In this document: one piece after another, positions 21,349 to 48,088 of the stretch
Position numbering within the stretch: position 1 is the stretch's first letter
Layout: every line of letters starts with the position of its first letter
Assembly: GCA_905178155.1 (NCBI GenBank)
Contig: CAJINV010000003.1
Span: 8,313,117 to 8,377,116 of the forward strand
From: Amoebophrya sp. A120
Lineage: Eukaryota; Protista; Dinoflagellata
Reading direction: 5' to 3'
DNA length: 64,000 bases
Translations under genes and position numbers: made by a program
Notes under the pieces: generated by a model
Seen by the model: the letters and a program-made list of their open reading frames with translations, nothing else
The model's database searches: none
Told to the model about the DNA's origin: nothing

Positions 21349-21574
21349 GTAACATTTTAGGTCTGCGCAGCACCTCAGAAGCTTTGTTTTCGCCGATTTG
21401 TAGCTACTAAGATAGAAGGACGGAACTATTAGCGCAGATATGCAGTCGCCTAATGCGATGTTGAGATAGATTCGCGCACGTATGCTGCAGAAGCACCAAG
21501 ACATCAGCGGCGAGAGTGCGGTTTAATAATCGAGGGTTTGAGTTGCATAGCGAAATGACAAGCTAGCTCTGGAG

Positions 21575-23331
21575 ATGGAGGACGATGACTACGATGACGG
21601 CCTTGATTTTCTGCTGAAATCAAAGAAAAAATCGATCAAGGAGATATGGCTTGCTCATATGTTGCAATCTCAAGCGTTGCAATAGAGTCTGGAATTTGTC
21701 CTGCATCGGCAGTATGAGTACCATACCGAGACTTGGGCTTTTCGCAGTGCAAATTTAGCCAGAATCGCATGGGATTTGGAGCTCGTTGCAGATCGTGCAA
21801 CGCGACAGCTTCCAGACTCTATTGTAACGTTTTACGTTGTAACCTCTGAGCGGGTTATAGGCGAAATTCATGAAGGAGAAGGAACAGAAGAATGAGAAGA
21901 CGAAGAAAGACAAAAAGGGGAAGCATGGTACATTATTGGATGCCTGCCGCGTGCGAGTAGTTGGTTTCACTAATAGTAATATCAGTTTTGAAGATCAGTA
22001 CTAAACAGGAGAGACCATTATACGGCAGAGCTCCGTGATGGAGCTTTGTGTTTAAAAATGTTGAGGTGACTGATCAGGGCGACGCCACAGTTCTTGTATA
22101 GATGTTGAGTTGACTCACGAAATGAGTGAACACGCCTACGCCACCATCAATCCTTAAAAAGCAAAAACGCGGGCTGACCGAGCGGGGCTGATATTTCCGG
22201 TGGGACGGATACACACCCTGCTGAAGAACAAGGTTCCGGCTCAAGCACGGGTCGGAGGAACTGCGGCAGTGTTTTATCAATGTGAGTAAATATCCCTCCG
22301 CCATACTGCGACCTGATCTGTGTGGCACGATATCCGCACATCTCAGCTAAAGCTTAAGCCTCTTGACGGAGGCATCAATGCCTAGCTGCTTGACATAAGA
22401 ACAGGAGCGTTTTCATCTGTTGATTGAACAATCTTAGAGACCAGCCATATTCATATAGCGCCCTCGCTACCATTTTTTTTGTGTGCGCAAATCACATCAA
22501 TCAGCAACACAAATTTATTGCTCTTTGAGTATGGGGCGAGGGGACTTTTCCTCACAATATGTTTCAGGCCGCTGTCATGGAATATATGATGGCGGAATTG
22601 CTGGAGCTCTCTGGTAAGTTTTATCGCGGCCGGACTTGTCGTTGTCGCTTACTTATACTTGGTTTTGATCGCAAAGTCTTCGCCGCCACCACAACGATAG
22701 TACTGAAGTAGAAGGCCTCAAATTTTCAGAATCCTCTTCATAATGTGAAATAACAAGAAGGCACAAAAGTCGACCATGCCAAAATGTTGAACTCGATACA
22801 CATACATCTCCCTTATATGTCACACCAGGCAACCATGCGAAACAAGCCAAGAAGAAGGACCGAGCACGCATTACGCCACAATTTCTGACTAAGGCCATCA
22901 AAACCGACAAGGAGTTTGACGAGTACTAGGATCTCTTACAACTAATTTTATTTTGCGAATTCTCCTCGTCCTCCTTGCATGATGTTGAAGGAAACACCAA
23001 CTTCATAGTGAATCCAGGAGCCGAATCTTCACTATGTATGAAAGACTAAATCAGATTGCTGTCTCGCGCTATGCTTTCCGGAGGAGGCGTGATCCCGAAA
23101 TCTGACAAAGATCTGAAGGACATCTACGGCGGGAAGAAGGGTGCTGCGGGTGCCAAATCAGGAATGAAAATGCCAGCGTCTGAGGAAAACAGTAAGGCGA
23201 TGGGGGGCACCTTCCTGCCAGGGGCGCCCGCGGAACTCCCCGGTGGCGCAGTCGCGGGGGTAGACATGCTCGGCAGCGTGACCACAATTGGAGGCGTAGC
23301 TTCTGTGGGGCAGATGGGACCGGTTTCTTGA
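21575..23331 (+). CDS. H2A: Divergent histone H2A with long N- and C-terminal extensions; six exons
   Basis: Spliced translation reads [92 protein letters not shown]. Exons about 21575-21644, 21865-21927, 22162-22274, 22565-22613, 22829-22922, 23055-23331. Three GT-AG introns and two introners; the first exon is less certain. Confidence 0.9.
21645..21859 (+). mobile_element. Introner in the H2A N-terminal tail
   Basis: TATGGCTTGCTCATATGTTGCAA pairs with TTGTAACCTCTGAGCGGGTTATA. TSD GGAGA/GGCGA. Removing 220 nt is in frame. Confidence 0.75.
22275..22559 (+). mobile_element. Introner, family B, inside the H2A histone fold
   Basis: TATCAATGTGAGTAAATATCCCTCCGCCATACT / AGTATGGGGCGAGGGGACTTTTCCTCACAATA. 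TSD TGTTT at 22270-22274 and 22560-22564. Removal restores [11 protein letters not shown]. Confidence 0.9.
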
Positions 23332-24258
23332 GCAGGGGCTGCTCGGTGGTGCAGCGGTGCAGGAGAAAAAAGCGAACAGGAGTTGCTTATTACGATTTTG
23401 TCGTACATCGACATGCACGGATACATCATGCATCGCTCTGCGACTTCGAATTCCGTGCGAGTCTAAGGGTACGTGATGAATCCTCAGCGTAGAAGATGTA
23501 GCAGGTCAATACCATTTTGCTTTTTACTTATTTTTGTAGAGCTGTTTCTTTTATTACTTCTTTGTGGCTCATTTAAGATACTCGCCTTTTTTGCGACTTT
23601 TCTAATTGGAGAATGTGTTGTAGTAGAACAGTTTGTCTACAGTCAGAAAGATGAGTAAAGATACTCGGGGGTGGAATTTTGGTATGTATTGCATCTTTGA
23701 TTATGTGGACCACGACCTGGGGCTGGGCGAGGAGCTGGAGCGGTACAGAAAAAGAAGGCGTGTTTTCCTAGTTCACGCTATCATTATCAACCCACGCAAT
23801 GCTGGTTGCGGGGGAAAAAATGATCAGAGTTGACTGAAAACAGACAGCAAATATCTGTATACGTTTTCTTTCTGGATCTGGACGGAGATGAAAGTGGTTC
23901 CTGAGCCGTTTGGTGAGGGTGAGCCCTCTCGAGCAGGCATGGTAAGAGTGGCCCCGGGCTCTTCGGGCGATTAATGTTGCTGCTCCGCGTAGGTTTCGAG
24001 CCTAGCATTGAGTCCTTTGTTAACTACTAATTTATCGGAGGTAACTACGCGGTCGCGTTGCATGCTTGATCAATATGAAGCAATTTGGGGGAGCGCTAAC
24101 TGAGTCCTTTAGTCACAGCCCCCCGGTCTGAACATCTTCATGTATTTATTACTACTTCGTTCTAAAATATTTATACGTATACCTTCGTGCTGACAGAGAC
24201 TCGTGGCAATGGGAAATAAATGAATTTTGCGCAGATGACCAGCAGTATATAAGAGATC

Positions 24259-26928
24259 ATGGCAGTGAATCCAGGAGGGAAAAGTCCTTACATGGACCCT
24301 GTGCGTCTGTTGGCTCGTGACTACCTCAGGCTCTTCCGGACAAAGTATCGCGATCATGCGCGGCCTGGTGTGGTGTTTCGTCTACCGTGGGCAAGGTTTC
24401 TTCCCCCAATCATTTTTCGTGACTACAGACTGGTTGCCGAACTGTGTTGCCGCGGACCGCTGTATGCAGTAAAGCAGTTCCTCTTCCGCTCGAAGTTGTT
24501 CGGGCTGGTTGCGCAGCTCGTCCTGCTGATTCTGCTGGCCTTTCCCCGCGAAATATTGCAACTAGTGTTGCCTTATCAAATGCAAATACTTGTAATATGT
24601 CTGGGTCGGGAACCATAGCGACCCTCTTCGTTGGTCATGCATCGTTCTGCGCATCATGAAGCAATGGTCCTCGTCGAAAGCATGACAGGTTTGGAAGAAG
24701 CTTCGCGATGCCTGCTAGCCCGCATGAGAAACTCGCTTTTTACATGGCAGTAAAGAAATGGGATGGAGCTATTCCTGGGGCTCATGCACTAGAAGAGCTT
24801 GACCTAAACCTAATGTTCCCGAGATCGTGCACCATCAAGGCATCGGTCGCAAAGTGGATGATGCATTTGTGGGCTGAGGTGTAAAAAAATTGCCGGCGGT
24901 CACGCAATTATACTGATTCTGATTTTGCTTTTCCTTTTTGTGTGATCCGGACGGGACTCAGCACCACAGCTTTGCAAAGCATTCTTCCAGGCCTAGACGA
25001 CCTATTTGCGAAAATGCATATGCCGTTGGTGGAACAGACTCTGCAGTCGCACGTCTCAGCGTACTTACAGCAGTGGGTGCAGTCTTCCCCTTGGACCTCC
25101 AACGCTGTGGCACGGTTTGCGGGCAACCTGGGCTTTCGTGTCTTTCACCGCATGAAAAACTTCGTGGAGCGCAGCGCCGACTCACTCGACGAGCGATTGG
25201 GGCGTTCGAAATATTTTGCAAGTGACCTGGTCGTATCAAATTCAAATGTAAAAATGTCTGGGTCTGGAAGAGCCATGCTGCTTTTGCACGACACAGAAGG
25301 TCTGGCATGGAAGCTTTAGCATCACAGGTTTCGAGAAGCTTCCGCAATGCCGAATCCGCATGACAAATGCCCCATTTTGGTGACAGAAAGCGGGCAGCTT
25401 TTTCTGCCTATGCATGAGAGATTTTTATGTGTTGTGAAATGCGCATCACAGGTTGCATTCTTCCAGACCCAGACATTTTTTCATTTGATAGGTCGCGCGG
25501 GTGTTTCATGTGGACGACGACGCAGCGGATACCGCAAATTTTTTTCTGCACAACCTCCACTGGATTTGTGCGTCGACCTCCGCGGTCGCGCTGCTGGCTT
25601 GCGACGCGGTCTACAACACGTTTTTTTTTGCATATTGTGACCGCGACCTTTCGACTTTTCTGCGTGAGACTCTGCTCTCGCTGGCCGTGGTGTGTGGAGG
25701 AGGCGGTACGTTCGTTGTCAGAAAGCTCTTGGCGCTGTTCGTGTCGCACCTGCCCGCAGGCAGCACATCTTCACGACGACCAGAGGAGCGGACAGCGACA
25801 AGTGTCGGAGGAGCTGTAGTTGAAGAGGACAAGGCACAGCCTCGCTTGTTGGTGGAGGTGGAACAACCAGGAACCGATCATGCGCGAAAAGTAGAACCAG
25901 CAGAGATGAACAAAATAGCATCGGCGACATCGTCAAAGCGCCCGCCGGGGGGCGAGAGCGGTACCACTGCCACCAGCAGCAGCTCTTCGGAAAATTATAA
26001 ACAGCTAGAACAACCGAAAGGCCAAGTAGAAGATGCCTGGCGCGCCGCGAAGAGCAGCGCAACAGCGACGCGGCTCCAGCAGTCTACGTTGTTCACGACG
26101 ACACATCAGCAAGACGAGCAGCTGGCTTGGCATGCCAAGACATCGCGGCGCAGGAAGGCTACATTGAAAGACTTCGAACCTGACGAAGCGGAACCAGATG
26201 CGGAGGGGACCGAAGAAAAAGAGCAGTCCCCGGCGTCGTCTAGCTCTTTTGTTGACGTGATGGAGCCTATTGATCTGTTCCAAGTCGGCCTGACTGTACT
26301 GAGCACGTGTGTGGGAGGCTTGATCGGGCTGGAAGCCGGAGAGCGGTGCTTCGACGGCGTCTTTGGCGACCGGCAGCAGCAGCGCGAAGCGAAAGATTAT
26401 CGCCTGCTTGGGCTGCCAGGGGGCAGGTGTCACGCCACGACCGCGGAAATACTCAGTCAGTACGTGAAGGAAAGTGAAAAAGTTGTCTCGCTGGACGAGT
26501 ACGTGAGGGAAAGTGAGAAAAGCTTGTCCACCTCCGGTGGTAGATCCTCGCCAAGAGCTTCGAGCAGCGACACGACGGATGAAGGTGGTGCGCAAGCCAC
26601 AGGTGGTAGTTTAAGTTCTGGGGAGAAAGAAGTCATCGAAGATTGTGTGTCTACTGCAGCGACAACGACCTCGTCTTCAACTTCATCGTGGGTACGGGAG
26701 TTCGACGACAGTGGGCCATCCTCCGGCTGCTCGGGATGCCAGGTGGCGGCCCGCCTTCGGTTTATTGACCTCAGTTCTGCAATGGAGCGAATCGGTGCGG
26801 AGCGTGGATTGTTTCTCGAGGGTGCCGACGTCCTCCCGTTTACGATACCGGAGGGTGGAAGAGCGGGCAGATCAGGAGCCCCCGGTGCTGGTCTAGCTAA
26901 GGAACGCATGATACTTTCGAAACTCTGA
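24259..26928 (+). CDS. Hypothetical protein with hydrophobic segments; three exons
   Basis: ORFs 24259, 24942 and 25501 join in frame after two family A introners are removed (LVLP|FCVIR and SDLV|ARVFH). The 5' end may extend upstream. Confidence 0.65.
24574..24930 (+). mobile_element. Degenerate introner, family A
   Basis: Left end TATCAAATGCAAATACTTGTAATATGTCTGGGTCGGGAA; right TIR eroded. TSD TGCCT/TTCCT. Removing 362 nt is in frame. Confidence 0.65.
25234..25490 (+). mobile_element. Introner, family A
   Basis: TIR AAATGTAAAAATGTCTGGGTCTGGAAGA / TCTTCCAGACCCAGACATTTTTTCATTTGATA. TSD GGTCG at 25229-25233 and 25491-25495. Removing 262 nt is in frame. Confidence 0.93.
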
Positions 26929-27775: not shown

Positions 27776-30700
27776 ATGGCGCCTCGTAAGAAGCAGCGTT
27801 TAATATTTCTTCTGCGCAAGAAAATGAAAAAGAAGGGAGTAAGCCTAAGCCATCAGACTCAGAGAATTACAACTACGTCGCCCCCGCGGCTGCCACATCA
27901 TCTACATTGGAAGACCCCCTCGCTCTGCAGAGAGGCCGCTACTGCTCTGCCCACAATCTCAATCTGCAGGCGGACCACGACTGGGCTCCGAGGTGGACGA
28001 GAATTTTGCTCTCCGTCGAGGTCAGGCGAGACGAATTGGAAGGCTGCAGCAGATAAGTGTTGGGCGCTCGCTAAACAAATATCAACCTTGCAAGATAAAG
28101 AAGTAGCCACTCAGCACCGTGAGGCGAACAAAGAGCGTCAATCTGCGGAGGCGTATGTCGGTGAGATTGCCGAGATAATACAGCAACTAGCAGTAGAAGT
28201 ACCATGCTATCGATACGCTCGTGTTCGTCCACCTGGACGCGGCCCGACCGCCAGACATGGACATCAAATAGCGGAAAAGAACACAGTTTCTTGCTCTATT
28301 AAAACGCTGGGCGCGCGTCTAGTGTGCAATTTGGTGTGGGCGGTCTCCGTTGCTGCGGAGTGGTGTCTTGTCTCGAGCGCCCCCGCCTCGGCTTCTTCGG
28401 TGCTGGTCCCTGAGAAAATTAGAGTCGACAAGAACCACGTGCTTGAACAAGAATATTATGAGACAAGACCAGTCCGTCTCCGTGTCCGTCTGGCGTTTTT
28501 CTTGGGCTGGATGCGAGAGATGCATGACGATTGTGTGAAACACCGCTTTCTCGGTGTAGGACGATTGCTCTGCGAGAGACGCAGCAAGAGGACCGTTTTT
28601 GCCGGATTCGAGGTTGGCCGACAGCACGAAGAACAAGGGGCACGGTCTTTTTTCTCGCCCGCACAAATGGCCACGATTTGCGAATCGTATCAGCGATTCG
28701 CACCTGAACTTGATGATTTGCTTTTAGACCTCGCAGCTGAGGTGACTAGTGCCTGCGATTTTGTGCCGACGTCCACCCGGGATGAGCAAGCGAATGCGCG
28801 CCGGTGGAGCAATAACTCATGCGACGCACCAGAGCTGGACCTCCTGGACGCGGATGCGGATCAGGGTGAAGAAAGACCCGTTCTTGATGCCAAGGAGATA
28901 TGTATTCGGGAGCGAAGCGAGCCTTCCGCTTCAGGACCGACAGCACGTCGACTCAAGGATGGGCAACATCAAGCAGATGAAACTGAAGGTGAAGCTGCCA
29001 ATCGTGCAAATACATATTGTCGCATGTCGCTGTGCTTTTTGAAGGCCGCCGGACGTCTCGCCAAAAAGGGAAGGGTGACCAAAAACGCGCTGGGTACGAT
29101 TTCCCGCAAGCTGATGGTGCAACTTTTACTAGGCTGCTCTAGGACTACCTCTATTGACGTATCAACACATCAGCATATTGTTCCAAAAACAAAATCCGTT
29201 TCTCGGTCGTGCCTTGGCCTTGTCCGGCGCAATAATCGGGAGTCGACGCGCACTACCGGTACTGGCGAGGACTGGCGAACAAGTAGTTTTCGGCTACAAC
29301 CAGCGCGTAGTACAATTTTTGCAGGCACAGAGTCAGAGGGAGCAAGTTTCTCCTTCTCGACTCCCCTTCTTCAACGCGCGAGTCAGCGTCACCTGACGCT
29401 GCTGGCGCATGCTCTGGCAAGCACAGGCGTGGTGTCGAACATTGTGTTGAGAATCGTGGTTCCCTGCTTTGTATGAACTGCAAACGCATCGCACTACGTA
29501 GTAATTGCAATACAAATTAGCTCAGCCTCAGCATTATAAATGGAATCTGTCATGCTGTTTTACCGTTGAGATGGAGATGCATGGCTGCGATTGCTACGAA
29601 TGCGATACTTTTGCACAGGATACTTTGCGTACGAGCAGATGGACGGCCAGGGGTTGAGCAATGCCCTCTGGGCGTGGGGGACTGCACTCCGCTACGAGGC
29701 ACAGGAGGAGATGGAACGAGATGGCAGCGGATTTATTCCGGTACGTCATACAACTGGAGATCTTCAAGATGATCCTCTTTGTCAACATAGTAAGACTAAC
29801 AAGTGCTCCTCTGAACAAGAAGAGGGAGATCATCCACAGCTGGAATCTTCTGCGTCATCGTTCTACATGACAGAGAAGCATGCTGAGCTTGTGCTATCGC
29901 GGTTGCGCCGCGGTTTGAAGATTCCAGGAGGACGGTGGTCGTGCAAAAATGCCGTGGTGCGCGAAGGCTCGGGGTGGAGAACAAGTTTTTCGCCTGTCAG
30001 TGTTTCTTGTGCTGGTCCTCGTCCTCGCGCTACACCACTGGTCGTGTCGCCACAAGGGCTGAGTAATATCGCTTGGGCACTGGCATACTTGACAAGAGCT
30101 GCGACGGGGTGGCATGCCGACGATTTTGGCGGAAAGTTTTCCGTGGAAGTGCCGCCGCCACCCCGGGTGAACAAGCGAAAGTCTGCCTTACTGACGAAGA
30201 AACAGGACGCCTGCAGTTCTGCGGTCGAGGAACTATTTGTACCGCCCGTTTTGATTGGTAGCCTGGTGCAGACTCTCTGTGATCTGGCGGGGCAACAAGC
30301 GCAACAAATAAACTCGCGGCAACAAGAACAGGCTTCGGCTGCACCGTCAAATAAAGAGGTCCTTTGGCAGACGCAGGAGCTGAGTATTTTCGTTTGGGCC
30401 ATTGGAAAAATGGCCGTGCGCGCAGCTGTTTCGCCCTCGTCGCAGGTACTTGCTACTAGGGTCGATAGAAACTACTGTCCCGATGGAGAACGAACAAGTT
30501 CAAGTGTTGTCCGGGACGCGGGATCCTTGGCTAGAAGTATCCGCTTTGCTTTAACTGCCCTGTTGTGTGGTTCTACAGCGATTGCAAGTACTTCCACTTC
30601 GAGAGTGACAAATGCGGCTGGCCCGGACAACCCAGCCTTGTTCTGGTCTGCGCAGAGCCAGGCAAATTTGCTTTCTGGTTGCACAGCGCTGTCCTTTCGC

Positions 30701-31854: not shown

Positions 31855-32662
31855 ATGACAACCAGCGAAGTCCCAGTAGCAGCCACGGCCGCGGCGCCAT
31901 ATGTGTCGCCAATTGCGCAGCCATTGGTGAGCGGCAAACTGGAATCGAAGTGTCTGAAGATGTTGCGGAAAGCCTTCGGGGCCAAGGCAGTCAAGCGAGG
32001 TATCCCGGAAGTGACGAAGCTGGTGCGCAAAAACAAAAAAGGTATTTACCACCAGTGCCTTTTTTTTTTGTTTATTATTTCGGAATTTCAACATCGGAAT
32101 TGTGGGCACGGCCGAGTTTATCGTTTGTTCAATTTTTTGACACCAATTATTTGAGTAAGAATCGTGGTGCTCTTCATCTTCATGCCGGGGAAGATATACT
32201 TTTACAGAAACTGATACTGAGGCAAGAAGTTGTCAGACCAGCGGCATTTTCTTCAATGACGTCTTTTATATCGCAGGTGTGGTGATTTTTGCAGCTGATG
32301 TTTTTCCCGTTGATTTGGTGGCGCACATGCCTCTCCTGTGCGAGGAGAAGGACGTGATGTATGCCTACTTGTCTTCCCGAAAAGCCTTGGGCGAAGCGAT
32401 CAATAGCAAGCGCGGGGTCAGTGCCGTGTTCGTGCCAGAACCGACCAGCGACTCGCCGCACGAGAGCGCCTATTCGCAGCTGATGGCTGCGTTGAAGATC
32501 GTCCACCCCTACATGGGAGAGGGAAAGCCGATGGAAGCGGAGGAAAGCAACAAGCGGGCTGCAACAACGGAAGTAGAGGGAGCAGCGGCAGATGAGTCGG
32601 GGGCAGCGGACGAGCCGGCCAAGAAAAAGAAGAAGAAGGAAAAGAAGGAAAAGGCGGAGTAA
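31855..32662 (+). CDS. NHP2: L7Ae-family protein, NHP2-like H/ACA snoRNP subunit
   Basis: SPIAQPL, VKRGIPEVTKLVRK, VIFAADVFPVDLVAHMPLLCEE, YLSSRKALG; Lys-rich tail. GT-AG intron at 32042-32276. Confidence 0.85.
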
Positions 32663-33924
32663 AAGGAGATCACCAAAGAACCCCACAAATAGTCCACGGA
32701 ACAAGCCGAGGACAGTGTGCGTGATCAACAAGATACTAGCGATTATATCACGAAAAAATGCAACTAGAATCATTGGATATCACACGGTACTATACTACAT
32801 CATGAAGAAGGAAAGGTCAGAAGTCAATCATGAGAAGAGACGATGAAGATGACGCAGATGTTTATGTTTTGCTTTTGCGCACGACATGCCTGTTGGAGTC
32901 AGCGATAAGGGTTGCACCAGCAGGGTCTGCAGGGATTTGAAAAAATAAAAGATAGAGTGCAACACGTGAATCCTATTTACCGCAGCGCAGCATAACAATT
33001 ATTCCGACGAGGAACCAGCACAGGCCCACGGGTATTTCTGAGCCGCGATTCTTCCTGTTTCCGTGTTCACTTTCCTTTATGGTTGCCGTCGTCTTTTCGT
33101 TCGTAGAAAGTATCAGAAACTTCTGATGATCTTCGACGCGCCGCTACGCTTGCGCCACCTTCGGTCTGTGCGTCTTTGTCGTCTAGGCTTCGTCACAATG
33201 CGTCCCTAGTTGACGTACGGTTACTGCTGTGTCAGACACCGAAGTCGTCAGTCGGGAGGATTTTGATGATTGCTTTGTACACGTCCTGCGTCGTGGTTTT
33301 GTATAACCGCCACGAATGCCGTCACGAACAGTACTCTCGTCCTTCACTGGTGGGCACAAGCTCAATATTACATTCGTGCAACTACAATCTTGTCGTTCCC
33401 GCATCGTCCAACTTTCGTGCGTTCTTTTCTGTAAACCCGTCAGTTGGGTAAATCATTCACTCATTCGTTTCTTGTTGGAGTTACGCCGACGTGGAATAAA
33501 AGATATACGGTATCTCTTCCTTTTTCATTTTCGTCGACAAAACAGGCTCAGTTTTCCCAAGGTAATACCCGAAACAAGGGTCATGATATATTCGTTTCTT
33601 ATTTAGTAGATGAATTTTAGTAGCCAGCAGGAGTTTAGTAAATCTATCAATTTTCGGAATCGAGCCACTTGTTGCGGTCTTTCATCTTCAGGGGGGCCCG
33701 TTGTGGAGAAGTACAAGTGAATAGAAGAAAAATAGTCTTAATTGAAAATGAAAACTTCAGTTACCAGCAGGCGAAGGAACGGGCTTCACTTATTATGTGA
33801 AAGCGCTTTTGTGATTTGTGATATGTCAATTGATCGTCTCCGTGCCGACTTACCTCGTCGGGCAGCACCAGCACTCGATACGCAGCAGGCGGTGCGAAAA
33901 TACACCTAGACCACCAGCGCGGTC

Positions 33925-36900
33925 ATGTCTATTGCAGACATTGAAGGGTTTCTGGCCCACTGGGAGGAGATCCGAGAAGTTCGCTGGGAACTTCCGGTCG
34001 CGGAGCGTGGGCGTTTGCTCCGGTATTTTCCGCATGGCTACCACGCTACGGCAGATGACTTTCGATCGGTCCTGAAAAATCCAGGTGGAGCAGCCCGGTC
34101 CGCCGCATTCCAGCGCGAGCTGAGTACCCGAAGTAGTGCAGCGGAAGATCGAGCTCGGCAAGAACAAGATGAATCCTCGGGCGGCGGTGCGCGAATAACA
34201 CATGCGGAGCTGGGAGAGGCCGAGCGACAGGAACGCAAATTGCGGCGCGAGGCGAGGGACGCGGGTACAGAAAGGCTGGCGAGTCTGAGCAGCGAAAGAG
34301 ACACGACGAGGGCGAGCGTCAACAGCAATTTTAAGTACACCAGCAGCGATCTGGAACTGCTTGATGAAGAGAGGGACTCTGAAAGCGACCCTGATTTAGA
34401 TGAAGACAGCGCAGAAGTTCTCCCGCCGCTGCCGGGCGCAAGAACGGAGGAGGCAGATCGGCTCCGTCAGCAGCGGCACCAGCGCGCGCTGCTGGCGCGA
34501 CACCAAGCCCTGCGAAATCGGAGCGCGGCGCCGTGGAGCCCGCTCGTGGTGGCGTTTCTGGAGGACGGGGTCCAGTACCTGGATCGGCATGCCGAGTGGC
34601 TCCCGAAGAACGCGGACGGCGAGGCTACGGTGCGGTGGCGGACCTACCTCCACTACCAGTCGCGGGAGCGGCAGGGCTTCTTTGAGCGGCATGAGTGGGT
34701 GGCTCACGTGATGGTGATCATGCTCCTGTTCGCCCTCGCGCCGGTAGTGTTCTGCGTGGAGAGCATTGCTGACTACGTGGGGGAGGAAAGCCTCTGCAGC
34801 AGAGATGAGGCGATTGCCCTCGCGGGTGGAAGCGAGAAGATGACCCCCATTGGAGGGGTGGCCGGGGTGAGGCGAGTCATGTACTGGGCCTCGGTCACCT
34901 TGGCGGCGGTGGGCTTCGGAGACGTAACGCCGAAGTCCCAGTTTGGGAAGTGGTTCACGGTCTTCTTCATCCTGATTGGCATCAACCTGCTCGCCAACGC
35001 CATCCTGCGCATGATGGCAGACCTCCTGGAGAAGACGGCCAAGACGGACGAGGACAACCGGCGAGCGCAACGCTCGAATCGCCAGGTCGCGGCGAATATG
35101 CATTGCAAAATATGACTTGGTCTGCTGGAAACATTAACATCCCAACTTGATGTGATGCCGAGTCTGGAGTCGACGTCGAAAATGTGTGTTGCTTAGTCGG
35201 CTAGCAAAAAGTGTGCGCTTCTTGTCTCCACCTGCAGACGGCATTTTTCATGCAGGCTGGCATGCAGATCGACATCGATATCATGCAGAAGCCCCTGCGG
35301 ATCTTGTCATGCTCTGTGTGCATTTCGATTTCGGACGACCTTTTTTTGTTTGTCCACACATCAATGTAAATTCTGCATTCTTCCAGACCTAGACATATTT
35401 GCAGTTGATAGCAAAGCGGATCCAGGAGGCTCTGCAGGGGGGGCGGAGCACCGCGGTGGCCGGTGTTTGGCTCGAGCACACGGGTTCCCCCAGGGACATT
35501 TTGGAGCAGCGCGATTTGCTCGGTATTCCGGGCGCGGAAGTCTTTGTGGACGCCGACGACGGATCAGGATCTTCATCCGCGAACGATAATATCCTCGCCA
35601 CCAGTGCGGGGGAACAACAACAAGGGGGGCCAAGGGAGACCCCAATCAATATAAACGGTTCATCTCCACCTTCTCCACCCACCTCGCTGCAGTCGTTTGA
35701 TCAGCAGCACGCGACGTCGGAGCCACATAGTACGCAGCACTCACACGACGATCATCAACCGCACAGCAAGATGAACTCTGCCTCCACCAGTGCTGGAACA
35801 AGGAGCATGATCTTCAGCACGATTCATGATCGCGTGGATCGTGCACAACAGCACATACTGCACGTGCAGCACGAACATTTGCAACAGCATCATCAAAGTG
35901 GTGCCCATAATTCAACATCTGCCTCGACGTCGCCCTCGCCGGGTACCAGTGCGCACGAAAGCGATCTTATCGCAAGAAAAAAGCGTTACAGTTACACATT
36001 GTGTTGCACGCCAAGCAAGACAGACCAGCTCTGTTATGCCGGATACGCATAGAAGCCTCGTTTCATAGGTGTTTTCCCGTAGGATTTCTGCATTACAAGT
36101 TTTCTCTCTCATGCAGAGAAATTTGTGTTGCTGAATTGGCTACAAATGTGTAACTGTAACACTTTTTTCCTTGGATAGATCTCGATGCGTGGTTTCATCA
36201 TAGGAGTCACACAAGGAGCGACTCCGCGTCCGCCCGGTTCACCAACCCGACCGCGCGGTCTGGATTTATTTTCGGGGGAACGTCGCGCTTTCTCGCGGGA
36301 GAGCGAGACGAGACTACTTCTGCTGCCGCTCCGACCCCTCCGGCGGGGAACAGCGGACTAGTGTCCCTTCTCAAAACTGAGACGGATAATTCTTCCGAAG
36401 CGAAGTCGGTGAATTTTGCGAAGTCGGTGAATTTTGCGGCGGCGTTGGAAGAGTCGCAAATGATCGATGCAACTTCTGCAGATTTGCTACAACCTTCGGA
36501 TCCGCAGCTGCGTCAGGACGAGCAGGACCGCGGGGAGCGAGAGCAAGGCGCAACTACAGATGTTGACCATTCTGTGCAAGAGGGCGGGGTTCCTCGGGTT
36601 CGGAAAAAGGGGCTGCAGGTGCGAAGAGCGCCACGGCCTCCGGTAGGCGATCTGGTTCTGACTCGCATCAGCCGATTCTTGACCAGTACTGACAAAGTGC
36701 CTGCTCCCAAGTGGTTGGATGCATCCGATGATGAGGACGACGGGATGGAAAAGCGGCACAACCACGACCCAGAGGTGCGGCATGCTGAAGAGGAGACCCA
36801 GATGAGAATATCGGCGGGGGCATCAACTTCAACGGCAAGTGTGACGATCAGGACCACCGTGATGAACTTCGTTTCGAGAAGTGTGATTCCTCTTCTTGGA

Positions 36901-39869
36901 AGATTTTCCTCGAACAGGACGGAAGCCGATCAACATCCCGAAGACGATGCGGGGGCTCCCTTCTCGTCTACTACACCGGATGAAGAGGAGGTAGTAGGAC
37001 CACGTGCAAGAACAAGACCCGAAGCTTCTGCCGTTTCCACAACATACAGCAATTTAGATTTTTTGGTAGGCCGCCCCTCGGAGGGCTTGGACAGTATGCC
37101 AGACTCCGTGTCGTCGACGCGCTCCTCTAGTGTGAGAACACGAGCCACGGCAACACGGACGACCACCCCGCACGATCATCTATCGCGGGAGACCACAAAG
37201 AGGATAACTGGCGGGTCCTCTCGCGTAGAACCGAGTAGACCACAACTTCGAACCGGAATGTCAACCGTTCGGACGCTTCGGACCACTAACACGGTCCACC
37301 GAGCGTCAACTACAGGTGTGGATCCCCGTGGCGATTCATCTTCAATGCAGCGCCATAGCTCGTCGGACGGTGGAGCAGCCACGGCATCTTCTACAACCAC
37401 TGGGACGTCCTATGTATATCATGAGCTGCAGGACCAGTTGGCGGGGACGTCGATGAAAAATGGTTCGGATCTGGATAAGATAAACATTAACATCATGTCC
37501 CCGCGCGGGCTCCACCTCCAAGAACGTTCGCCGGTCGAAATGCAATTACTGCCACCAGCAGTGCGTCTTGTGCCAGGCAGCACACGACCCGGTGCTGCAG
37601 GTGGTGCACTTGCTCTAGAAGGCACGACGACCTCCAGCGCTGGTGCCCAGTTGTACCCTCGAAGTACTGTCGAGGGCCAGTCATCGGGACCCGGAGCAGC
37701 GGGAGCAGGAGCACCAGCATCATCTTCAGGAGCAGGTCAGGCGAGGAGCAAGAAGAAGATTGTGAACAGGACCGCGCGGAAGAACGTGGCCATACGCCGG
37801 CTGGAATTGCTCTCAACTCGGTTGTTGCGGTTGGTTCGCAATTTTGTGCTGGGCGACACCCCTTATCGGCGGCGCATGTCTTGGATCAAGATTACCAAGA
37901 TCTCCCAGACCGCCGTGCTTCTACTTCTGCCCATCGTGCTGGGTGCCGTGTTGGTACACTACATCGAAAGCTTCGACTTCACGGATAGTGTGTATTGGTC
38001 TGTGGTGGCGCTTTCCACCGTGGGCTACGGGGAACAGGAGCTGCGGAACGAGGGGGGCCACTGGGTGTGGATGCTGTTCCTCCCCTTCGGCTGCCTCATG
38101 TTTGCCTTCGGGTACACGAACCTCATCCTGCTCCACCGGGTACTGCGGCGGGAGCAGAAGCGGCACCTGGCGCTCGGGAACGACCACATCCGGCAGTCTG
38201 TCGCGATGCTCGACCGCGGGTCCGGGATCGACCTCTTCGAGTACATGATCGCCAGTTTGCTCGTGTCCGAGTTGGTGCACCCGTCCGACCTTTCCGACAT
38301 CATGGACGCCTTCTCACAACTCGACGTTTATGCAAACCAAATCAATAAAACACACCCACTCAATCAAAATCTTCAAATAAAAAGGTTTCTACTAAGTTAT
38401 GTTGCGATGTTGGTGGACTACAATGATGTGAGCATAAGAGCATCAACATATCAACAGTAGAGGCGTGAGCCGCGTGACGATATGGACACCCTACCTTGCT
38501 GCTTGGTGTCAAGAGGTCAAATGTGGCGTCCGACACGCCAGCGAAAGGCCAGGCATGCCTGGCCACCCATTTTTAAAGGGGGAGCATTCCCAGATCTCAG
38601 AATTGCGCTGATGAAGATGATGATAATGAAGATGATCATGATACTAGGCATCTTCACTGAGAAGAAAAGACACTTAATTTATTTTCGGGCTGCTACCGGA
38701 AAAGCAAAAGGTTGCGGCGCCCTTAAGGTGGCGTGTAGAACGAACTCGTTGTTGGCATGACAAACCGAAACCTTGGATTTTGTTTTTCCTTGAATAAAGA
38801 GTTTGGGTTTTTCTTTGTGATACGTGTGACGGTACGGGGCTGGTCACCCGGGAAGACGTCGATGCGATGCACCACCGCGACGACCCGCATCTCAGTCTAC
38901 CCCGCAAGGGCGCTCCGAGCCTCCCCGCACTATCTTCACAGCCGCGCGCCATCGTGTCATCTTCCCCTGTGATAACATCAACGACTAGTCAAGGCGCAGG
39001 GTCGGATCCATTGTTCTCGAGCGTGCAAGCTGATCATGCAACAACACGAACGCAGCCTGGCGCAGGCCAGGTGCCGGTCGGCGGGGAGGTGGAGCATCAA
39101 GCACTTGGTACTAGTAGCAACTACAGCACTGAACAAGGAGCGGGCACTGCGCTCCGTGATGAAGTCCGAGATCCTCCCCCGCCCCTGCACGAGCATTCAA
39201 CTAGTACCACGTCATTCTCCTTTCCCGCCTCCGTTAGTGGACCAAAACCGGTCGTTATCCAAGAAAAAAACGCTGTTAGTGTAAATTTGTGATGCGGAAC
39301 ATGCAAGATGATTGCGTCTGTCATGCTTGGCATGCATTGTAGGGTCCACTAGCGGGCGTTTTCACTTAGTATCTGCGCATGACAGGTTTTTGCTGTCATG
39401 CCAGACAGATTTGTAATGCTGGTCCTCCAAAAAAGTTACATCTACATTGTTTTTTTCGTGGATAGTCGTGCCGTCGACAAGAAGCCGGGCGCAAAACTTT
39501 CGCAAAGCGCCATCGCTGACCGTGGAGGACATCGAAGCTCGTCGCAGGGAGGCGCGGAGCGCAGCTGCGGAAAGGCGCGCACTGGAGCTGCAATTGCATC
39601 AGAACAAGAGCCACGTAAATGTGTTCAAGAACGTGGTCGTGAACACGACCCATAGCAATGCCACCGGGGGCGATCTACTTCTCAGGGGGCCTCCGTCCGT
39701 AGGTAGCAACGCGACGACAGGTGGAGGACAAGCAGTGCATGGTGGAGGTGCTCAAACAAGCATGCAGCAGCAACTTCTACATCTAGCACCTCCTTCGGGA
39801 CCGAGCGTTACCAAGTACCCCGCATCATCGCTTGCTAGGATATTCTTCAAGCCCGCCGACTCCAAATGA
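33925..39869 (+). CDS. Two-pore-domain K+ channel (TPK/K2P-like) with C-terminal EF hands
   Basis: P1 YWASVTLAAVGFGDVTPKSQFGK and P2 DSVYWSVVALSTVGYGE, each flanked by TM helices. EF loop DVDGTGLVTRED appears after splicing. Five exons joined by four introners, all in frame. Confidence 0.85.
35097..35410 (+). mobile_element. Introner, family A
   Basis: TATGCATTGCAAAATATGACTTGGTCTG / TGCATTCTTCCAGACCTAGACATATTTGCAGTTGATA. TSD GCGAA/GCAAA. Removing 319 nt is in frame. Confidence 0.88.
35968..36177 (+). mobile_element. Introner, family D
   Basis: TATCGCAAGAAAAAAGCGTTACAGTTACACATT / AATGTGTAACTGTAACACTTTTTTCCTTGGATA. TSD GATCT. Removing 215 nt is in frame. Confidence 0.93.
38329..38822 (+). mobile_element. 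Degenerate introner within an EF-hand loop
   Basis: TAT...ATA ends, weak TIR, TSD eroded (ACGTT/CGTGT). Removing element + 5 nt gives FSQLDVDGTGLVTREDV. Confidence 0.72.
39256..39464 (+). mobile_element. Introner, family D-like
   Basis: TATCCAAGAAAAAAACGCTGTTAGTGTAA / TTACATCTACATTGTTTTTTTCGTGGATA. TSD GTCGT. Removing 214 nt is in frame. Confidence 0.9.
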
Positions 39870-41007: not shown

Positions 41008-44000
41008 ATGGGGTGGAGTATTCGTTTTGATCACGTATACGTTCTCTGTCTGCTTTGCTTGCACTCCTTCGCATGGTACAACAGCACTTTCAACAGTGGA
41101 GGTTTCTCTGCTGGTTTCTGCCCTGCTACTTTTGTTGCGCGTGCAGCGTCGGTTCAGCAGCCCGAGAGACGCGATGGTGAGTCGCAGCGCCCGTTCAGAC
41201 GAAGCAGCAATGTTAGAAGCACGACTCGAGATGACAGAGAGGGACCGGGTGCTGCTGACGGAACGGCGGAAGAGCAGCAGGTTGAGGATCGATGGCTAGC
41301 TGAGCACCTGCAGCAGCTGGAAATAAACGACGAGGCTGTGCTGGCGCATAGAGCAGGCAGAGCCTACGCAGCGGATCATGTCAGCGGTCGCTCATCATCT
41401 TACGCTCCTGTTGAGATGTATGAAGACGATCAGCTAGATTCGCTCGTTAGGGGCAATGGCACCTCCGACCCCGTGATCGTCCCGGGAGGGAGTCTTCTGA
41501 CTGAGTTTCAGGATGCTTTGTTCCAGTACTTTTTTCGAGATATCGAGGACATTCTCCAGCAACCGGAGGGAGGCGCCGGGACAGGAGCAGGAGGTGGAGA
41601 CAGCAGAATCACGAACGAATCCTCGGTGCAAGACTTGGAAGACCGAGCTCCACTTGCCTTCCATGTGGGCGATTGCACACAGTGTGTGATCTATCGTTCG
41701 AAAAAAATGTTCGACTGGTGTAAGAGTTTTGCACGATTTGCATCCGACGTTTGTTTTACATGACACCAAAGGTTGTTCCGGAGGAAAGACACGGCCCAAA
41801 AAGGCTCATATTTAAGTTTAACGACATTTTTTTCTTTCGATATGATCTGTATCGGAGAGTTCCCGGAGCCCAAGGAGTTCCAGAGTTCATCATGCAGTTC
41901 GGCGAACGGCAAAAATGGTTCGACTTCGAGTTCGACACGAATCCTGGCCGACTTGGAGGAAGACGAATGCTGTCGGTCCGAGGCTGCCGCCCCTGAGGGC
42001 GGCGATACAGCCAGTGAAGCAGCTGCAAAAGGTGTGTCCGGCTCTGGCAAGAAGACATGCTCCTCCTGCCGAGTACTAGGAACGACTCCGGGAAACACAA
42101 ATAAAGGGCTACAAGTAGAAAAAGAGGACCACCCGCCGCCCAAATCGCTTAGTGCCGCAAAAAATGTGAGTAGCCTACGAGATGACCACGTCGATGCAGC
42201 GGGCAGAACCAGAAGCTCCTGCTCCAGCAAGGCAGCGATAAATTTCTACCAAGATGTCACGTCAGGACGGCCTGAACCGCCGGTCGCGAGGAGTCCGAAG
42301 GGCATCAGTAGTACAGATGGAGTTCTTGCTTGTCCACTTGCAGCGACGTCCGGATTTTCAGAGGTGGACGAAGAAGACGCGGCTTCGTCGCCGGGAGCTG
42401 GGCCCTCCAGCAGTACAGCGGCGAACCCAGATAAGTTCAAAAAAATGATTGACCTGCGCTGCATGCCGGGTCGCCCCGGTCACCTCTTCCATTCGGAATG
42501 CCTGTACACGTGGCTCCACAAGTGCATCGAAGAAGAGATGAGCCGATACAATGCACAGGCCGACGAACGGCGAGGGTTCTTGGAAACGACCACCGCACGT
42601 TGCCCGGTATGCCGGCAGCAGATTTCCCGGGAAGCGACCGTGGACCTGCTGGACCTGGCCCATGCAGAGGGCCGCCAGAAAAAGGAGTTTCGCGAGGTGG
42701 AAAACTCTTTCCTGGAGGAATTTTGTCTGAAAGAAGCGGAGGGTCAGCTGGCAGCCGTTGCGCAGATTGACGCGCAGCTGACGGCACTAGCAGCGGACCA
42801 CCAGAGCACCTCCGGCTCGTTGCTACTAGGAGGTGCAGCTGGGTCCACAGGGGCCTCTTTCGCGAGCTCACGCTGCAGTGGCAGCGGCCGTGGCGGGTCA
42901 TCTTTTTCCGCGGCGACGCTTCCATTGCCCTACAGCTTTTGTGGCACAAACTACACGACTTCGGTGGACGGTGCGGCTGCACCCATGATATCCAGTCGAC
43001 AGCAGCATTTAGGGCGGAAAAATCGGCAAATAGCATCATTTTTGTGAGCGCGCATTTTGGGGGGGCAAAAAAATTATGGCTGTTGGGGGTGTCGCTACTG
43101 CTTTTTTTCCTGTTGGCCATTTAGATGCTGGCGCCACTCTTCGTTGCCACGGTCCGCCATCCGGCCCCCCCCTTTTTGAAATAAAACCACAGCACTTTGT
43201 TGCAGTTGCACAGGCCTGCGGCCCTCTGGCGCCGGAAGCCGCGCCCCCTCTCCCACATCCAGTTCCGGACGCGCCCAGATATCTTCTCATCTTCCCTCTC
43301 CGGCCGGATATTGAGAAGGCGGACGCGCCAGCAGTCAAGTGCTTCCGGGGGGGGGTGCCGAAGGGGGGGGGTAAGGGGGTCCGCTTGGGCTGCCTCTGGG
43401 CTACCATTTTGGGGCACGCAAAATCGGCAGTTTCCAATGGGGATTAGGGGGTCGGCATAGGCTACCGAAAGGGTACCCGGAAGGGGTACCCGGAAGGGGT
43501 GTCCGGGAGGGGCAAAAATGCACCCCCCTGACCACCCCCCCTGGCCGGGCCTCCTTTTCTGGGCGAAGGGCCTCGTCGAGCCCCGGTCACGGAGGCGGCC
43601 CGGCCACTTTTCGAAGAGCGGGCCCAAGACAAAGCGTCCGGCCATCTGAACGACAAGGCACAGAACGAAGGCGCTGTGGCCTGCTTCTGGTCCTGGTGTT
43701 GCGGCATTTCCAAAGCTCAGCCATCATGTTTCCTGTGGAAAAGATGAAGTGACACGCGAGGCGTGTCGGCTTCCAAGATGTTGCGCCCCCAACAAAAAAA
43801 AAGTTTTTACCCCCCCAAAAAGTGCGCTGGCAAAAATGATGCTATTTGCCGATTTTTCCGCCCTAAAGCATGCTGCTGGTCTCGCGCAACAGCAGCGGAT
43901 GAGAAAAACGGTTCTCCCGAAGTACCGGAACGCGCTGCAGTTCTTCAAGACGAGCCTGAAGTACAAGAGCGGTGGCCGCACGCGGCGGCGGATTTGCGAG

Positions 44001-44231
44001 GTTGTCTTGGATGCCACACTGTGGGCCTGTCGCAACGGGCAGGAACGCGACGGGATGGAGCTTCTCGACGACCATTTACTAATGGCGAAAGAGGTGGACG
44101 CCGAGGCTCTGCGGTGGCAGTCCTTTCTGCGGAACTCAGTCGCCTACGCAGATCGGTTCGAGGATGCGCGGGAACGGTGTGAGGCCGCCGTGGAGTTGCG
44201 CACCAAGAAAAAACTATCGACGGGGAAGTGA
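41008..44231 (+). CDS. RING-H2 finger protein (putative E3 ligase) with hydrophobic N-terminus
   Basis: CVICIGEF (after splicing) ... LRCMPGRPGHLFHSECLYTWL ... CPVCR. ORFs 40996, 41773 and 43749 are joined in frame by two introners. Confidence 0.8.
41692..41842 (+). mobile_element. Introner splitting the first RING CxxC
   Basis: TATCGTTCGAAAAAAATGT / ACATTTTTTTCTTTCGATA. TSD TGATC at 41687-41691 and 41843-41847. Removal restores CVIC. Confidence 0.92.
43009..43866 (+). mobile_element. Long introner/MITE with TTA...TAA ends
   Basis: 36-bp perfect TIR TTAGGGCGGAAAAATCGGCAAATAGCATCATTTTTG, imperfect out to about 85 bp. TSD AGCAT at 43004-43008 and 43867-43871. Removing 863 nt is in frame (SRQQH|AAGLAQ). 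Confidence 0.93.
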
Positions 44232-44750
44232 GTGGTCCTCTTTCCGGCTGCTGCTAGTCCTAACAGAAAAGCCAGGCAGCTCTCTTGTGGATTTCCCTGA
44301 AGATGTGCTGTTCTTTCTGTGATGCAAAACGCCCGACCAGCAAAAATCACTCCAGACTGCATGGAGTTGCGTGATCTTCGGTGTGCTTTTTGCATGACAA
44401 AACAGCAACAGTGGATCAACGCAAATCTGCACGGCAGGCTTTGACTTTTTCTTGCTAGAAGCAGCAGTGCCTCGTCCAGTCGCTCGCTTTCCCTCTATAA
44501 AAGCACCTCGACCAGCTCGTCGAAAATGCAGAATATCAAGATGAAAAATCTCCTTCCCCATATTCAAAATGGGAAAGTCTCTAAATTTGTGATGCAGGTT
44601 TGTGCACACGAGTCGTTTTGCAGCGAAGCATGTTTGATCTTGTACGGATGCGAAGCCTGCGTAGCTAGTACAGTTCCTTCTAGCTGCTCTTCGCCATGCC
44701 AGATGCCTCCGCTGTACATTTAGCCGAGCGCATGACCTCGCTTTCCCTTT

Positions 44751-47700
44751 GTGCACTGCAAGTTGGCTTGCCTACGCGAAGGCAAATACAGCAGCAGAGC
44801 TTTATTCCTTCTGAGTAGGTTGGGGAGAAGGATTTTTTCTCCCGATGCCGAGGCTATTTTCGCAAAATACGCCGCGAGGGACGTGCGGGCGGCTATGTTG
44901 ACGCTGCGGCTAGCACACTTTCTTACCCCGGACGAGGCTGCTGAAGGGCCGCAGCAGGCGCGCGGGTCGGTAACCTCCCGCCGACCTCCTGCACAGGACT
45001 CCGGAGTGGGACCTCGAGGCAGTGGCGTAAACCTTTCTCTTGCCGATCATGATAATCTTCATGGCGTACTACAGCACCCATGGCACCATCAGCAAGACGA
45101 AGACAGCTTGCCAGCAGAGGACGCCGGCGACACAATCTTTGCCCAGGAGGAAACATTCGTCACAGAAGCGCAGCAAATGGCAACGACGCTAGATGCAGTG
45201 GCTTCTACCGAAGTCGAGCTTGATCCCCGGACGAGGGGGATCGACCTGCCATCCTCTTTTGCTCGATCCACCTATGGTCCTTCGTGGGAGGGTTCCGATA
45301 GCAGCTCCGCAGAGCTGCTACAGGATGTTGCTGGAGGAGGGGCACCAGCTGCAGCGGCAACAGCATCGGTCTACTCTGCAGCAGACCGTAGGTCAACACA
45401 AAAGGAAAACAGAGTTCCGATCTTTACGATTGGTGTTGACGACAGGGAGGACCACGCGGAGGACGAAAGCTTTGATGACCAGGCGGGAGCGCAAGCCGTC
45501 GCGGATGCGTTTGTTGCTGATGTTGCTTCCAACTTTCCCCACGCGATCCGCCATAGTATGGTCGAGGAGACTACAGCTACACCAGATGAAGAAGTGCGAG
45601 CGAGCATCGTGAGCAATCTGATGAGTCACGAAACCGTGCCTGCATCGTCGTACCTTCCTCCAGGAGCAGTGAAAAATAGTAGTTCCACTCTTTTTACTGG
45701 TCGTGATGGGCTTGTTGGCCTTGACCATGCGCTTCCTTTTACGCGGAGCGTCAGTGCGGAAACTTCGAACCCAGGCGGGGAGCCCGGTGCCATCACAAAA
45801 AAAGGAAACTTGCAGCAGGTGCATCGGGTGTTTTCGGCGCTTCTACTGGCCTTGGAAGCCCCCAGTTCAACGGAGATCCCCAGCATTCTGACCGTGCAAC
45901 TGGCCGCCAGGGTACGGCTCGCGCTTCTAGAACACACCGACGCGGTCCGCTTCGAGGCCGAGGGACCGCGGTCCGCCAGTAATATGAAAGCGAAGTGGGC
46001 CAGAGAGACGGAGATCAATCAGCAGTCGTTGGCAAATTTTCGCGATGCCAATAATTGCACGGCGAGTGGTGCTGGCGCTACTTGTTGGGCGGAGAGCGCC
46101 CGTTGTGATGCCTGCGATGGATCCGCAGATAGTCTCGCTCGAGGGGTAAGGCCCTCAGAAAAGGACGCATGGTTACGAAGTCACACGACCAGGCGCATGT
46201 ATGGCGGAAACAGCGTCGTGGCGTCTGCAGCTGAAGAATTCCAAGAATGGTCCTCTGCTGCGGACCGTATCGAGGCAGACTTGTGCGGAAGAAGTTCGGA
46301 ATCCCTGTCGCCAGCCGGAGCCAGATGTAGTCGGGCGGCTGGTGCCCCCGCTGCGGCACCAGCAGCAACCACGCAGTCCTCCGCATTGCGTCTTGATCAC
46401 CGTCGACGAGGGAGCACAGATGAAGAAAGCGTAATGCACGAGTCTGCTCCGCGTCCGCTTGGGAGCACCAAAGACAAAGAAGGACGCAAAGACGGTGGGG
46501 CCGCGGAAATGCCGAGCGGGCGAGTGGTATGGCAGTGTCAGGTGGGAATAAGTCGTCAAATTTTTACAAGAATCGTGAAAAATAAAAAATGTGGTGTGCA
46601 ATCATGATGCCTGTCGGCTCCATAATTTCTATACCGGCACATGACCAATTTTGATTGTTGACACTCGGAGCGAGTCTGCCGCCATGGTTCTTCTGTGTGG
46701 AGCAATAAAAGGGGCTTCTCCACCATCTAGGATGGTCTTTCGAGACCCCATCCTGGCCCGTAGTCGGGGTTGCAATCGGCCTCCTTGCTTTGCCTGCTGT
46801 GCTTTCCAATATTACAAACATTTTGTGAGCATTTCCTCGCGATCTTCTTGTGGCATGACCAATGAATCGCAGAAAGATGCTGTGCGGGTTGCGTTTGTTG
46901 TGGCGGTCGGTTTAGCATGGCGGCTTCTATGTGTTGTTCGATGATTTTCCGCCTGGCGCTTTCATAAACCGCGAGCAAGAATGCCTGGGTGTCGGAGAAG
47001 GCGGCCTCTCAGAGCCCGGATAGTTACCAGGATCGTCAGACTTTCTTTCTCGAAGCCAGGGCCAAGTACGAAAAGCTCATTGCGAGGTATAAGGAGCTTC
47101 TGCACGGAATTGAGTCGTCCCCACAGGCTGCCAGGCCGCTTTTCAATTACGATCCGGAAGACGACCGACCCGGTCGCAGCCTCATCCATCAAGTTGGAAA
47201 CTTTGTAAAGGGCGCAGCTGCGGCCGCGGATGGACAGGGCGCATTCTTTCTCGGCCGCACCGAAAGCCGATCGTCCGCATGTCGGGGCTTCGCTAGTACG
47301 CCCACTACAACATAGATAAAATCATGCTCCTTTCACTTTCTAAGATGCCTGTAGAACTTGCTGTGTGAGCGTTCCTTCGGTGGGCAAGTGTCGTTGGACA
47401 GATTCTGTTCACTTTGATTGGTTTTTGGAAAAAGATCATGTCATCGTCATCTGTATCACCCACAACTTGAAGAAATCTATGGCTATGCAAACAGGGGGAT
47501 CTCCTCCAGCAGGTGCAGGAGCCAGTGCGGCGGGTGGATTCTCTCTGAGTTGCAGCGGTGCAAGCGGAAACCGAAGTGGTGTGTCATCGACAAATTGGTC
47601 ACGACAAATTACGCCCGATGATCGATTGCCGCTGGCACGAAATGCCGACGGTTTGCCCAGCTGGTTCGGTTTTTCGGCTGGCAAATTGCGCCTCGCGCTA

Positions 47701-47922: not shown

Positions 47923-48088
47923 CCGGTGATGTGAATTACAATCACCTACTTAGTTACATACATGTGTAAATGTAATAAAAATAATGTCGTGGATGCCGAT
48001 GCGAAATGTAATAATGACGTGTGTCTGTCCTACGTCCGTGTCCTGACACACACCAGACGTTGACATACTGTGTCAGTCACAGTCCTCC

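Follow-up and report, generated by a model that had tools for sequence, protein, structure and literature searches.

Excision register, terminal bases and a small G-U excess of the hairpin introners in a 64,000-nucleotide stretch of Amoebophrya sp. A120

How are introns without GT-AG borders recognized, and is the hairpin formed by their two ends kept as RNA? These questions are raised by a stretch of 64,000 nucleotides (nt) of the dinoflagellate Amoebophrya sp. A120 (contig CAJINV010000003.1), here called the window. It carries hairpin elements that start with TAT, end with ATA (at times ACA or ATG) and lie between 5-nt target site duplications (TSDs). Judged by their sequences, they match the introner elements described for this organism and thus appear to be of a known kind. 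In the passages of Farhat et al. (2021, PMC7789003) considered here, A120 introners are inverted repeats that start with TAT, followed by seven variable bases and a run of A. Shared features are the TAT-led terminal inverted repeats (TIRs), the 5-nt direct repeats, a length of 150-450 nt, the many families, the co-oriented genes, the ends other than GT-AG and a hairpin proposed to join the exon ends. According to the same passages, more than 60% of A120 introns lack GT-AG, no U1 was detected, the splice sites are variable and the mode of removal is open; all nine predominant non-canonical sites in Table S4 begin with N-T. The initial annotation of the window held that old elements keep their terminal stem through G-U pairs on the sense strand, and took this bias to suggest selection on a pre-mRNA hairpin that defines the splice sites. 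I found a fixed register of excision and two terminal bases held by identity, which together are a more useful result than the G-U excess.

Where exactly is the cut? The transcript data are contigs of runs X3-X6 from a single sample, and the RNA status of these runs is a guess. Sixteen joints were examined among the joints listed (three taken from contig pieces); six are GT-AG and ten are non-canonical. All ten non-canonical joints skip a TAT element plus 5 nt and fit N/TAT...ATA/N4. Both elements picked in the initial annotation, 21645-21859 and 46528-46966, are skipped in transcript-type contigs; in the case of the latter, an X4 contig joins 46526 to 46971, and a DNA-like X1 contig is continuous across 43838-52300. 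The joint from 50995 to 51178 cannot slide, and its intron begins one base before TAT and ends four bases after the ATA triplet (ACA in this element). The joint at 24574 permits only -1 or a position further left, and that at 46528 only -1 or 0. Thus, unlike the legend of Fig. S23 in PMC7789003, which allows 1-5 nt, the non-slidable joints fix the cut at -1/+4.

The register was also assessed in a larger set. Using a family motif, 126 loci were taken from one related metagenome assembly and merged into 117 loci (755,690 bases), which share the introner families of the window with identity up to 95%; the motif search gave no match in viral contigs or prokaryote genomes. The set thus comes almost wholly from one other assembly without RNA, selected via the motif of one family. 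An ungapped 20-nt scan performed no better than shuffles. Elements were instead sought with a gapped, end-anchored score in which G-T and A-C count the same, so that detection is blind to pair type. This yielded 672 elements (659 in the loci and 13 in the window) with a shuffled null near zero. Families hold up to 113 copies. A perfect 5-mer TSD is present in 474 of the 672 elements (detection favours such copies), while it is decayed at 46528 and absent at 50997. Orientation was set by a codon model on the flanks alone, which gave 503 exon-splitting elements, hereafter exonic copies; another 107 of the 672 were oriented by their neighbours only, and 62 were dropped (no or conflicting orientation, or nested). 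Insertions in the two orientations are nearly equal in number (187:182). The A run is clear at positions 11-13 (438, 462 and 468 of the 503 exonic copies). With the element plus 5 nt excised, 388 of 586 copies have a coding junction, compared with 8-14 for +3, +4, +6 and +7. At the -1/+4 cut, GT is found in 151 of 503 copies, AG in 40 and both in 10. Thus, there is no requirement for GT or AG, and the introners lack the combination of a U2-type GT donor with an AG acceptor as a rule.

Given that the families are equally frequent in both orientations, a base and its mirror on the other arm are expected to change equally often, unless reading of the RNA depends on direction. This was not the case. 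T at intron position +4 is changed in 13 of 503 copies (11 of them to C), and its mirror base, A(-7), in none (p=0.0002). T at +2 is kept in 502 of 503 copies, and its mirror base, A(-5), is changed in nine (p=0.02). The trend recurred in a partly shared set of 342 elements from a scan not anchored on the triplets (8 versus 1 and 2 versus 6). U(+2) and A(-7) are therefore held by identity, not by pairing, and in a strand-specific manner. At terminal pair 3 (+4/-7), C-A is accepted 11 times and U-G was never seen, which is the reverse of the G-U idea and suggests that the identity of the bases counts in addition to their pairing. A(-7) may be the branch base, although it is a candidate only; fused branch and acceptor motifs of similar length occur in Giardia, according to the part of PMC10711314 considered. 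Alternatively, A>G may be purged at this position because it creates a cryptic G/GTA donor.

Is there a G-U excess at all? For the two picked elements, ungapped end-to-end pairing on the + strand reproduced the reported counts exactly: 16 Watson-Crick, 5 G-U, 0 A-C and 2 U-C pairs over the terminal 23 of 21645-21859, and 14 Watson-Crick, 5 G-U, 0 A-C and 1 C-U over the terminal 20 of 46528-46966. The latter has indeed lost its TSD, as its flanking 5-mers differ at 3 of 5 positions. Element 29472 is mixed, as had been said, with counts that depend on the alignment (2 G-U and 1 A-C, or 5 and 5). When elements of the window are selected through their RNA support, regardless of pairing, the ten that qualify show 21 G-U against 14 A-C within the terminal 20 positions (p=0.31); six further inferred elements have 7 and 5. 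Over stem positions 4-60 of the 503 exonic copies, 739 G-U and 611 A-C were counted, a ratio of 1.21 (confidence interval (CI) 1.07-1.37, sign-flip p=0.003). Leaving out the window gives 1.19 and leaving out the largest family 1.24; balancing for orientation gives 1.23. The sense strand also gives the terminal 25-nt duplexes greater stability (mean -0.6 kcal/mol, p=0.003). Thus, the G-U excess is real and about 1.2, and A-C is not excluded. The direction of the bias proposed in the initial annotation is borne out, its size is not; 1.21 lies above 1 and far from 10:0.

An artefact of the single assembly, of family structure or of orientation calls is a very improbable source of this ratio. One assembly was chosen via the motif of one family, the bias is spread unevenly over the positions and reverses at 37-39, and strict orientation lowers the ratio to 1.15 (p=0.04). 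Against this, detection is neutral to G-T and A-C, orientation comes from the flanks only, and the unoriented total is balanced (922:875). Both contig strands exceed 1 when taken separately (1.27 and 1.15), and wrong orientation calls would weaken a bias rather than produce one.

A stricter idea is that the terminal RNA stem alone sets both splice sites, so that Watson-Crick pairs may decay to G-U while A-C is excluded. Several counts lean this way. Both picked elements are spliced with no A-C. Copies outside families of four or more show 220:157 (1.40, versus 1.14; p=0.10), copies with a decayed TSD show 1.39 versus 1.14 (p=0.10; 182:116 in copies with one TSD mismatch), and the extremes are one-sided, with G-U minus A-C of at least 4 in 25 copies and the mirror in 9. 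Retained-intron contigs are also listed for two weak-stem elements. However, there are 611 A-C appositions in exonic stems, the eight other RNA-supported elements of the window have 11 G-U and 14 A-C (34:31 gapped), the ratio is flat over bins of stem divergence (1.20, 1.19, 1.21 and 1.26), and terminal pair 3 behaves in the opposite way, as described above. As a strict rule this idea is largely refuted, and it is improbable as a whole. The rise in rare or decayed-TSD copies is a trend only, and the bias does not demonstrate that structure defines the splice sites.

Why, then, did the picked pair look so extreme? The sample was hand-picked, as the initial annotation had itself cautioned: at least 5 G-U with 0 A-C over 23 nt occurs in 3 of 503 exonic copies, and the mirror case in none. 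Element 46528 has no relatives among the loci, while 21645 has partial relatives, which carry two different arms. Its G-U at position 4 is found in same-orientation copies (L038:2393 and L072:4400) and appears as A-C in an exonic copy of opposite orientation (L020:3334). Relatives likewise have the G-U pairs at positions 7 and 8; the ones at positions 5 and 20 look derived. Of the five terminal G-U pairs, between one and three are thus shared, and part of the 5:0 was inherited rather than acquired by ageing. The picked pair is the tail of a weak bias combined with family-inherited differences between arms. Over 50 positions, 21645 has 38 Watson-Crick, 8 G-U, 0 A-C and 4 U-C, and it folds in prediction into a long hairpin (z = -6.6); the predicted hairpin of 46528 is weak (z = -1.7). 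Both are real hairpins, though they differ in strength.

Does the excess come from selection or from mutation? On the sense strand, C>T and A>G both create G-U, so that mutation linked to transcription could mimic the signal. Changes were scored against the family majority bases in 349 exonic copies belonging to families of six or more. The loci are a small part of a genome and many differences were inherited from unsampled parents; being blind to orientation, these dilute any bias arising after insertion, in stems and interiors alike. The ratio of G-U-making to A-C-making changes is 1.14-1.30 in stems and 1.03-1.08 in interiors. The assumption that neutral change gives both about equally is therefore nearly but not exactly right. 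For C>T over G>A, the ratio is 1.5-2.2 in stems versus 1.08-1.23 in interiors (odds ratio 1.8, p=0.008); the stem:interior ratio of ratios is 1.41-1.78, with a CI above 1 at three of four frequency cut-offs. Outside CpG, C>T runs at 16-21 per 1000 in stems versus 23 in interiors, and G>A at 9-11 versus 18. Transversions in stems are at about half the interior rate, like G>A, and the pattern is not a CpG effect. The deficit of G>A and transversions in stems fits a purging of broken G-C pairs in the RNA.

Transcription-associated deamination favours C>T, and DNA hairpins may be subject to strand-biased repair. The G-U excess could be mutational, through non-template C>T or through strand-biased repair of a DNA hairpin formed on transcription, with splicing guided by the terminal motif and its spacing and the long stem a leftover of the transposon. 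The interiors themselves show C>T over G>A somewhat above 1 on the sense strand and a slight skew of G over C (p=0.009), the bias is limited to C>T, and weak-stem elements are spliced. What speaks against such an origin is that stem C>T stays near the interior rate while G>A is about halved, which looks like a loss of A-C rather than a gain of C>T; the stem differs from the interior as given above, and the interiors lack a keto skew (p=0.70). This explanation is possible but rather unlikely, and weak selection at the RNA level is the more likely source of the excess.

Taken together, the best explanation is probably that these are TAT...ATA hairpin transposons excised with five flanking bases at -1/+4, whose ends are likely recognized through a terminal motif joined by the RNA hairpin, the small G-U excess likely reflecting weak selection on that hairpin. 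A number of results weigh against it. The register rests on few window joints from the one sample of guessed RNA label, and the codon model is unable to choose between TSD copies, so that the cut is not pinned in the loci. Elements with poor stems (21152, 24574 and 50997) are still spliced. The G-U:A-C ratio is 1.09 in the largest family alone, and the 107 non-exonic copies show 1.05 (CI 0.84-1.33), which is not significantly different from the exonic copies (p=0.32); a clean non-exonic control gave 19:23 in 17 copies (CI 0.39-1.67), in which false elements are possibly included. Of 42 candidates for degenerate old elements, about half are likely false as judged by wrong-length decoys, and the ratios of 1.03-1.17 for this set are uninformative. 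Taken over all changes, the ratio of stem to interior is 1.06-1.25, with 1 inside each CI. A>G over T>C is about 1 in stems and interiors, A-U pairs are without bias (0.90-1.05), and the split into G-C and A-U pairs was made post hoc. Finally, the signal is stronger beyond position 20 (C>T:G>A of 61:24) than within the terminal 20 bp (27:16).

In the proposed mechanism, the RNA hairpin would bring the two copies of a short terminal motif together, and these would mark the ends for excision. Since both arms carry the same motif, the intron would open with N-UAU and close with AUA-N4 whichever way the element had inserted; thus, an insertion anywhere in an exon would be removed without a change of the mRNA. 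After insertion, purging would hold changes that break G-C pairs of the pre-mRNA stem (G>A giving A-C, and transversions) at about half of the rate seen in interiors, and most C>T changes, which create G-U, would persist.

A few observations touch the role of the stem. The main X3 contig over 23055-25228 keeps the weak-stem element 24574 yet skips the strong-stem element 25234, and minor contigs keep 21152. This hints that stem strength affects splicing, although contigs give no levels and DNA is possibly present. A GT-AG intron of an L7Ae-family gene (32042-32276) also reads G/TAT...ATC/GCAG with flanks AAAGG/GCAGG, and by its sequence may be an old introner turned canonical. Related short TIR elements at 18196-18349 and 7570-7688 have 82% relatives among the loci. 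The former, with 3 G-U and 4 A-C, lies inside an apparent GT-AG intron of a gene which I take to be disulfide-isomerase-like; the two are possible transcribed controls that do not define splice sites. Element 58522-58803 (2 G-U, 4 A-C) had been considered as a copy nested in a canonical intron, but the junction test calls it exonic, and it is thus a counter-example and not a control.

Is such a system known elsewhere? In the parts of Nomura et al. (2025, PMC12501133) considered, nonconventional introns of Euglena follow the code 5'-N3CDG...CH'G N5-6/R, and knock-ins showed that splicing requires not only the terminal triplets, paired at a set distance, but also the stem that follows them; Amoebophrya does not appear in those parts. 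The present elements likewise have short paired triplets at fixed asymmetric offsets with a stem behind and slidable direct repeats, a suspected origin from miniature inverted-repeat transposable elements (MITEs), and a dependence on both sequence and pairing. In contrast to Euglena, the triplets are TAT/ATA with spacers of 1 and 4 instead of CAG/CTG with 3 and 5-6, a purine at the exon start is not strict (294 of 503), and U(+2) matches the U of the GU donor, which is absent from the Euglena code; the lineages are unrelated. The N3-CDG...CHG-N5-6 motif was not found in the introners, and a stem joining the intron ends was seen in predicted folds. By this analogy, the introners appear to work like the Euglena class without belonging to it. 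TIR/TSD introners are also described for Aureococcus, Symbiodinium, Polarella and Florenciella in the passages of Gozashti et al. (2022, PMC9860276) considered. As here, these are MITE insertions excised with one TSD copy, leaving the mRNA unchanged; unlike here, where GT and AG are rarely combined, they carry or co-opt GT/GC/GA and AG. In the Rfam search of the window no match reached the gathering score, and the domain V/VI core of group II introns was not found in these elements of 150-450 nt. The text and supplement passages of PMC7789003 considered hold no G-U versus A-C test, orientation count or strand-specific conserved base, and those of PMC11282704, PMC12130899 and PMC12005148 add no register or pairing test. 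In the literature search, whose coverage stopped short of Roy et al. 2023 (Curr Biol) and the figures of Farhat et al., no G-U versus A-C test for these introns was found.

The coordinates of the elements are collected in Table 1. Genes of the window run on the + strand, which is the sense strand: the six GT-AG introns read on +, and the codon model finds 25 open reading frames on + versus 2 on -, the latter in repeat arrays. The exon split by the element at 22275 is presumably histone H2A-like; a Pfam search with a 35-amino-acid piece of this exon gave no match.

Table 1. Introner elements of the window and the evidence for their excision
Feature	Position	Strand	Details
TAT...ATA introner MITE, long hairpin	21645..21859	+	TSD GGAGA/GGCGA; joint 21642 to 21863 (220 nt, slides 2) in X3, X5
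Intron of element 21645	21644-21863	+	-1/+4 rule; reading frame restored
Old introner, TSD decayed	46528..46966	+	Flanks AGTGG/AACCG; intron 46527-46970 (GT...CC); joint slides 1
Introner of large family, mixed G-U/A-C	29472..29622	+	TSD CTTTG; joint 29466 to 29623 in one X5 contig, depth 2.8
Introner TAT...ATG, same gene as 21645	20863..21130	+	TSD AGCTG; X5 joint 20862 to 21553 with 14-nt exon between
Old introner, weak stem, TSD lost	21152..21549	+	Joint 21149 to 21553; spliced, minor retained-intron contig
Introner inside exon	22275..22559	+	TSD TGTTT; joint 22269 to 22560
Old introner, weak stem	24574..25020	+	TSD TGCCT/TGCCG; joint 24568 to 25021 in X5 only; retained in main X3 contig
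Young introner, largest family	25234..25490	+	TSD GGTCG; joint 25228 to 25491; GT-AG cut would yield identical mRNA
Introner, no RNA cover	35097..35410	+	Candidate by its stem, a TSD with 1 mismatch and a restored reading frame
Young high-copy introner	35968..36177	+	TSD GATCT; DNA depth far above single copy
Young high-copy introner	39256..39464	+	TSD GTCGT
Introner	41692..41842	+	TSD TGATC; inferred from frame restoration
Old introner	50615..50957	+	TSD ACGAT; joint 50609 to 50958 in X3, X4, X6
Introner TAT...ACA without TSD	50997..51173	+	Joint 50995 to 51178, slide 0, in X3, X4, X6; intron 50996-51177 (CT...GT)

The window holds other repeats as well. A near-perfect 153-bp palindrome (98%) at 52365-52671 has TGT...ACA ends and a perfect 5-nt duplication (CTATC) and is intergenic; its sequence suggests a different or very young foldback element. 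A GC-rich repeat of about 880 nt at 43000-43875, with 90-nt inverted arms and no TAT/ATA ends, splits a coding stretch and has multiple copies in the DNA-like run. At 2127-3849, a kinesin-like gene is interrupted by 1.7 kb of GC-rich sequence; 38-nt direct repeats border this insertion on both sides, and the repeat occurs once more within it, at 3095. A direct repeat of about 48 nt (9931-9980 and 10603-10650) surrounds a 620-nt stretch with internal inverted repeats, which includes a piece matching an arm of element 50997. Tandem arrays with units of 13, 19, 22, 23 and 31 nt lie at 53090-55910 beside a 100-N gap. A segment of 36 nt at 33431-33466 is common to long X3, X4 and X6 contigs and to 146-149 X15 reads with flanks elsewhere; it has no Rfam match.

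What do these results mean for Amoebophrya? A possible though doubtful reading is that the introners follow an Amoebophrya-specific, orientation-blind code, N/UAY...AUA N4/, used by a U1-less spliceosome, in which the transposon hairpin would replace U1 and the 3' splice-site factors, U(+2) would be the donor mark and the invariant A(-7) the branch point. If this is true, a DNA transposon could land anywhere in an exon, either way round, free of cost, and the code would be convergent with that of Euglena. The fixed -1/+4 register and the two bases held by identity turn the "variable splice sites" into a short testable rule, with which gene models would be put right. As for the hairpin, the small G-U excess offers an initial and modest indication of selection acting on it as RNA.

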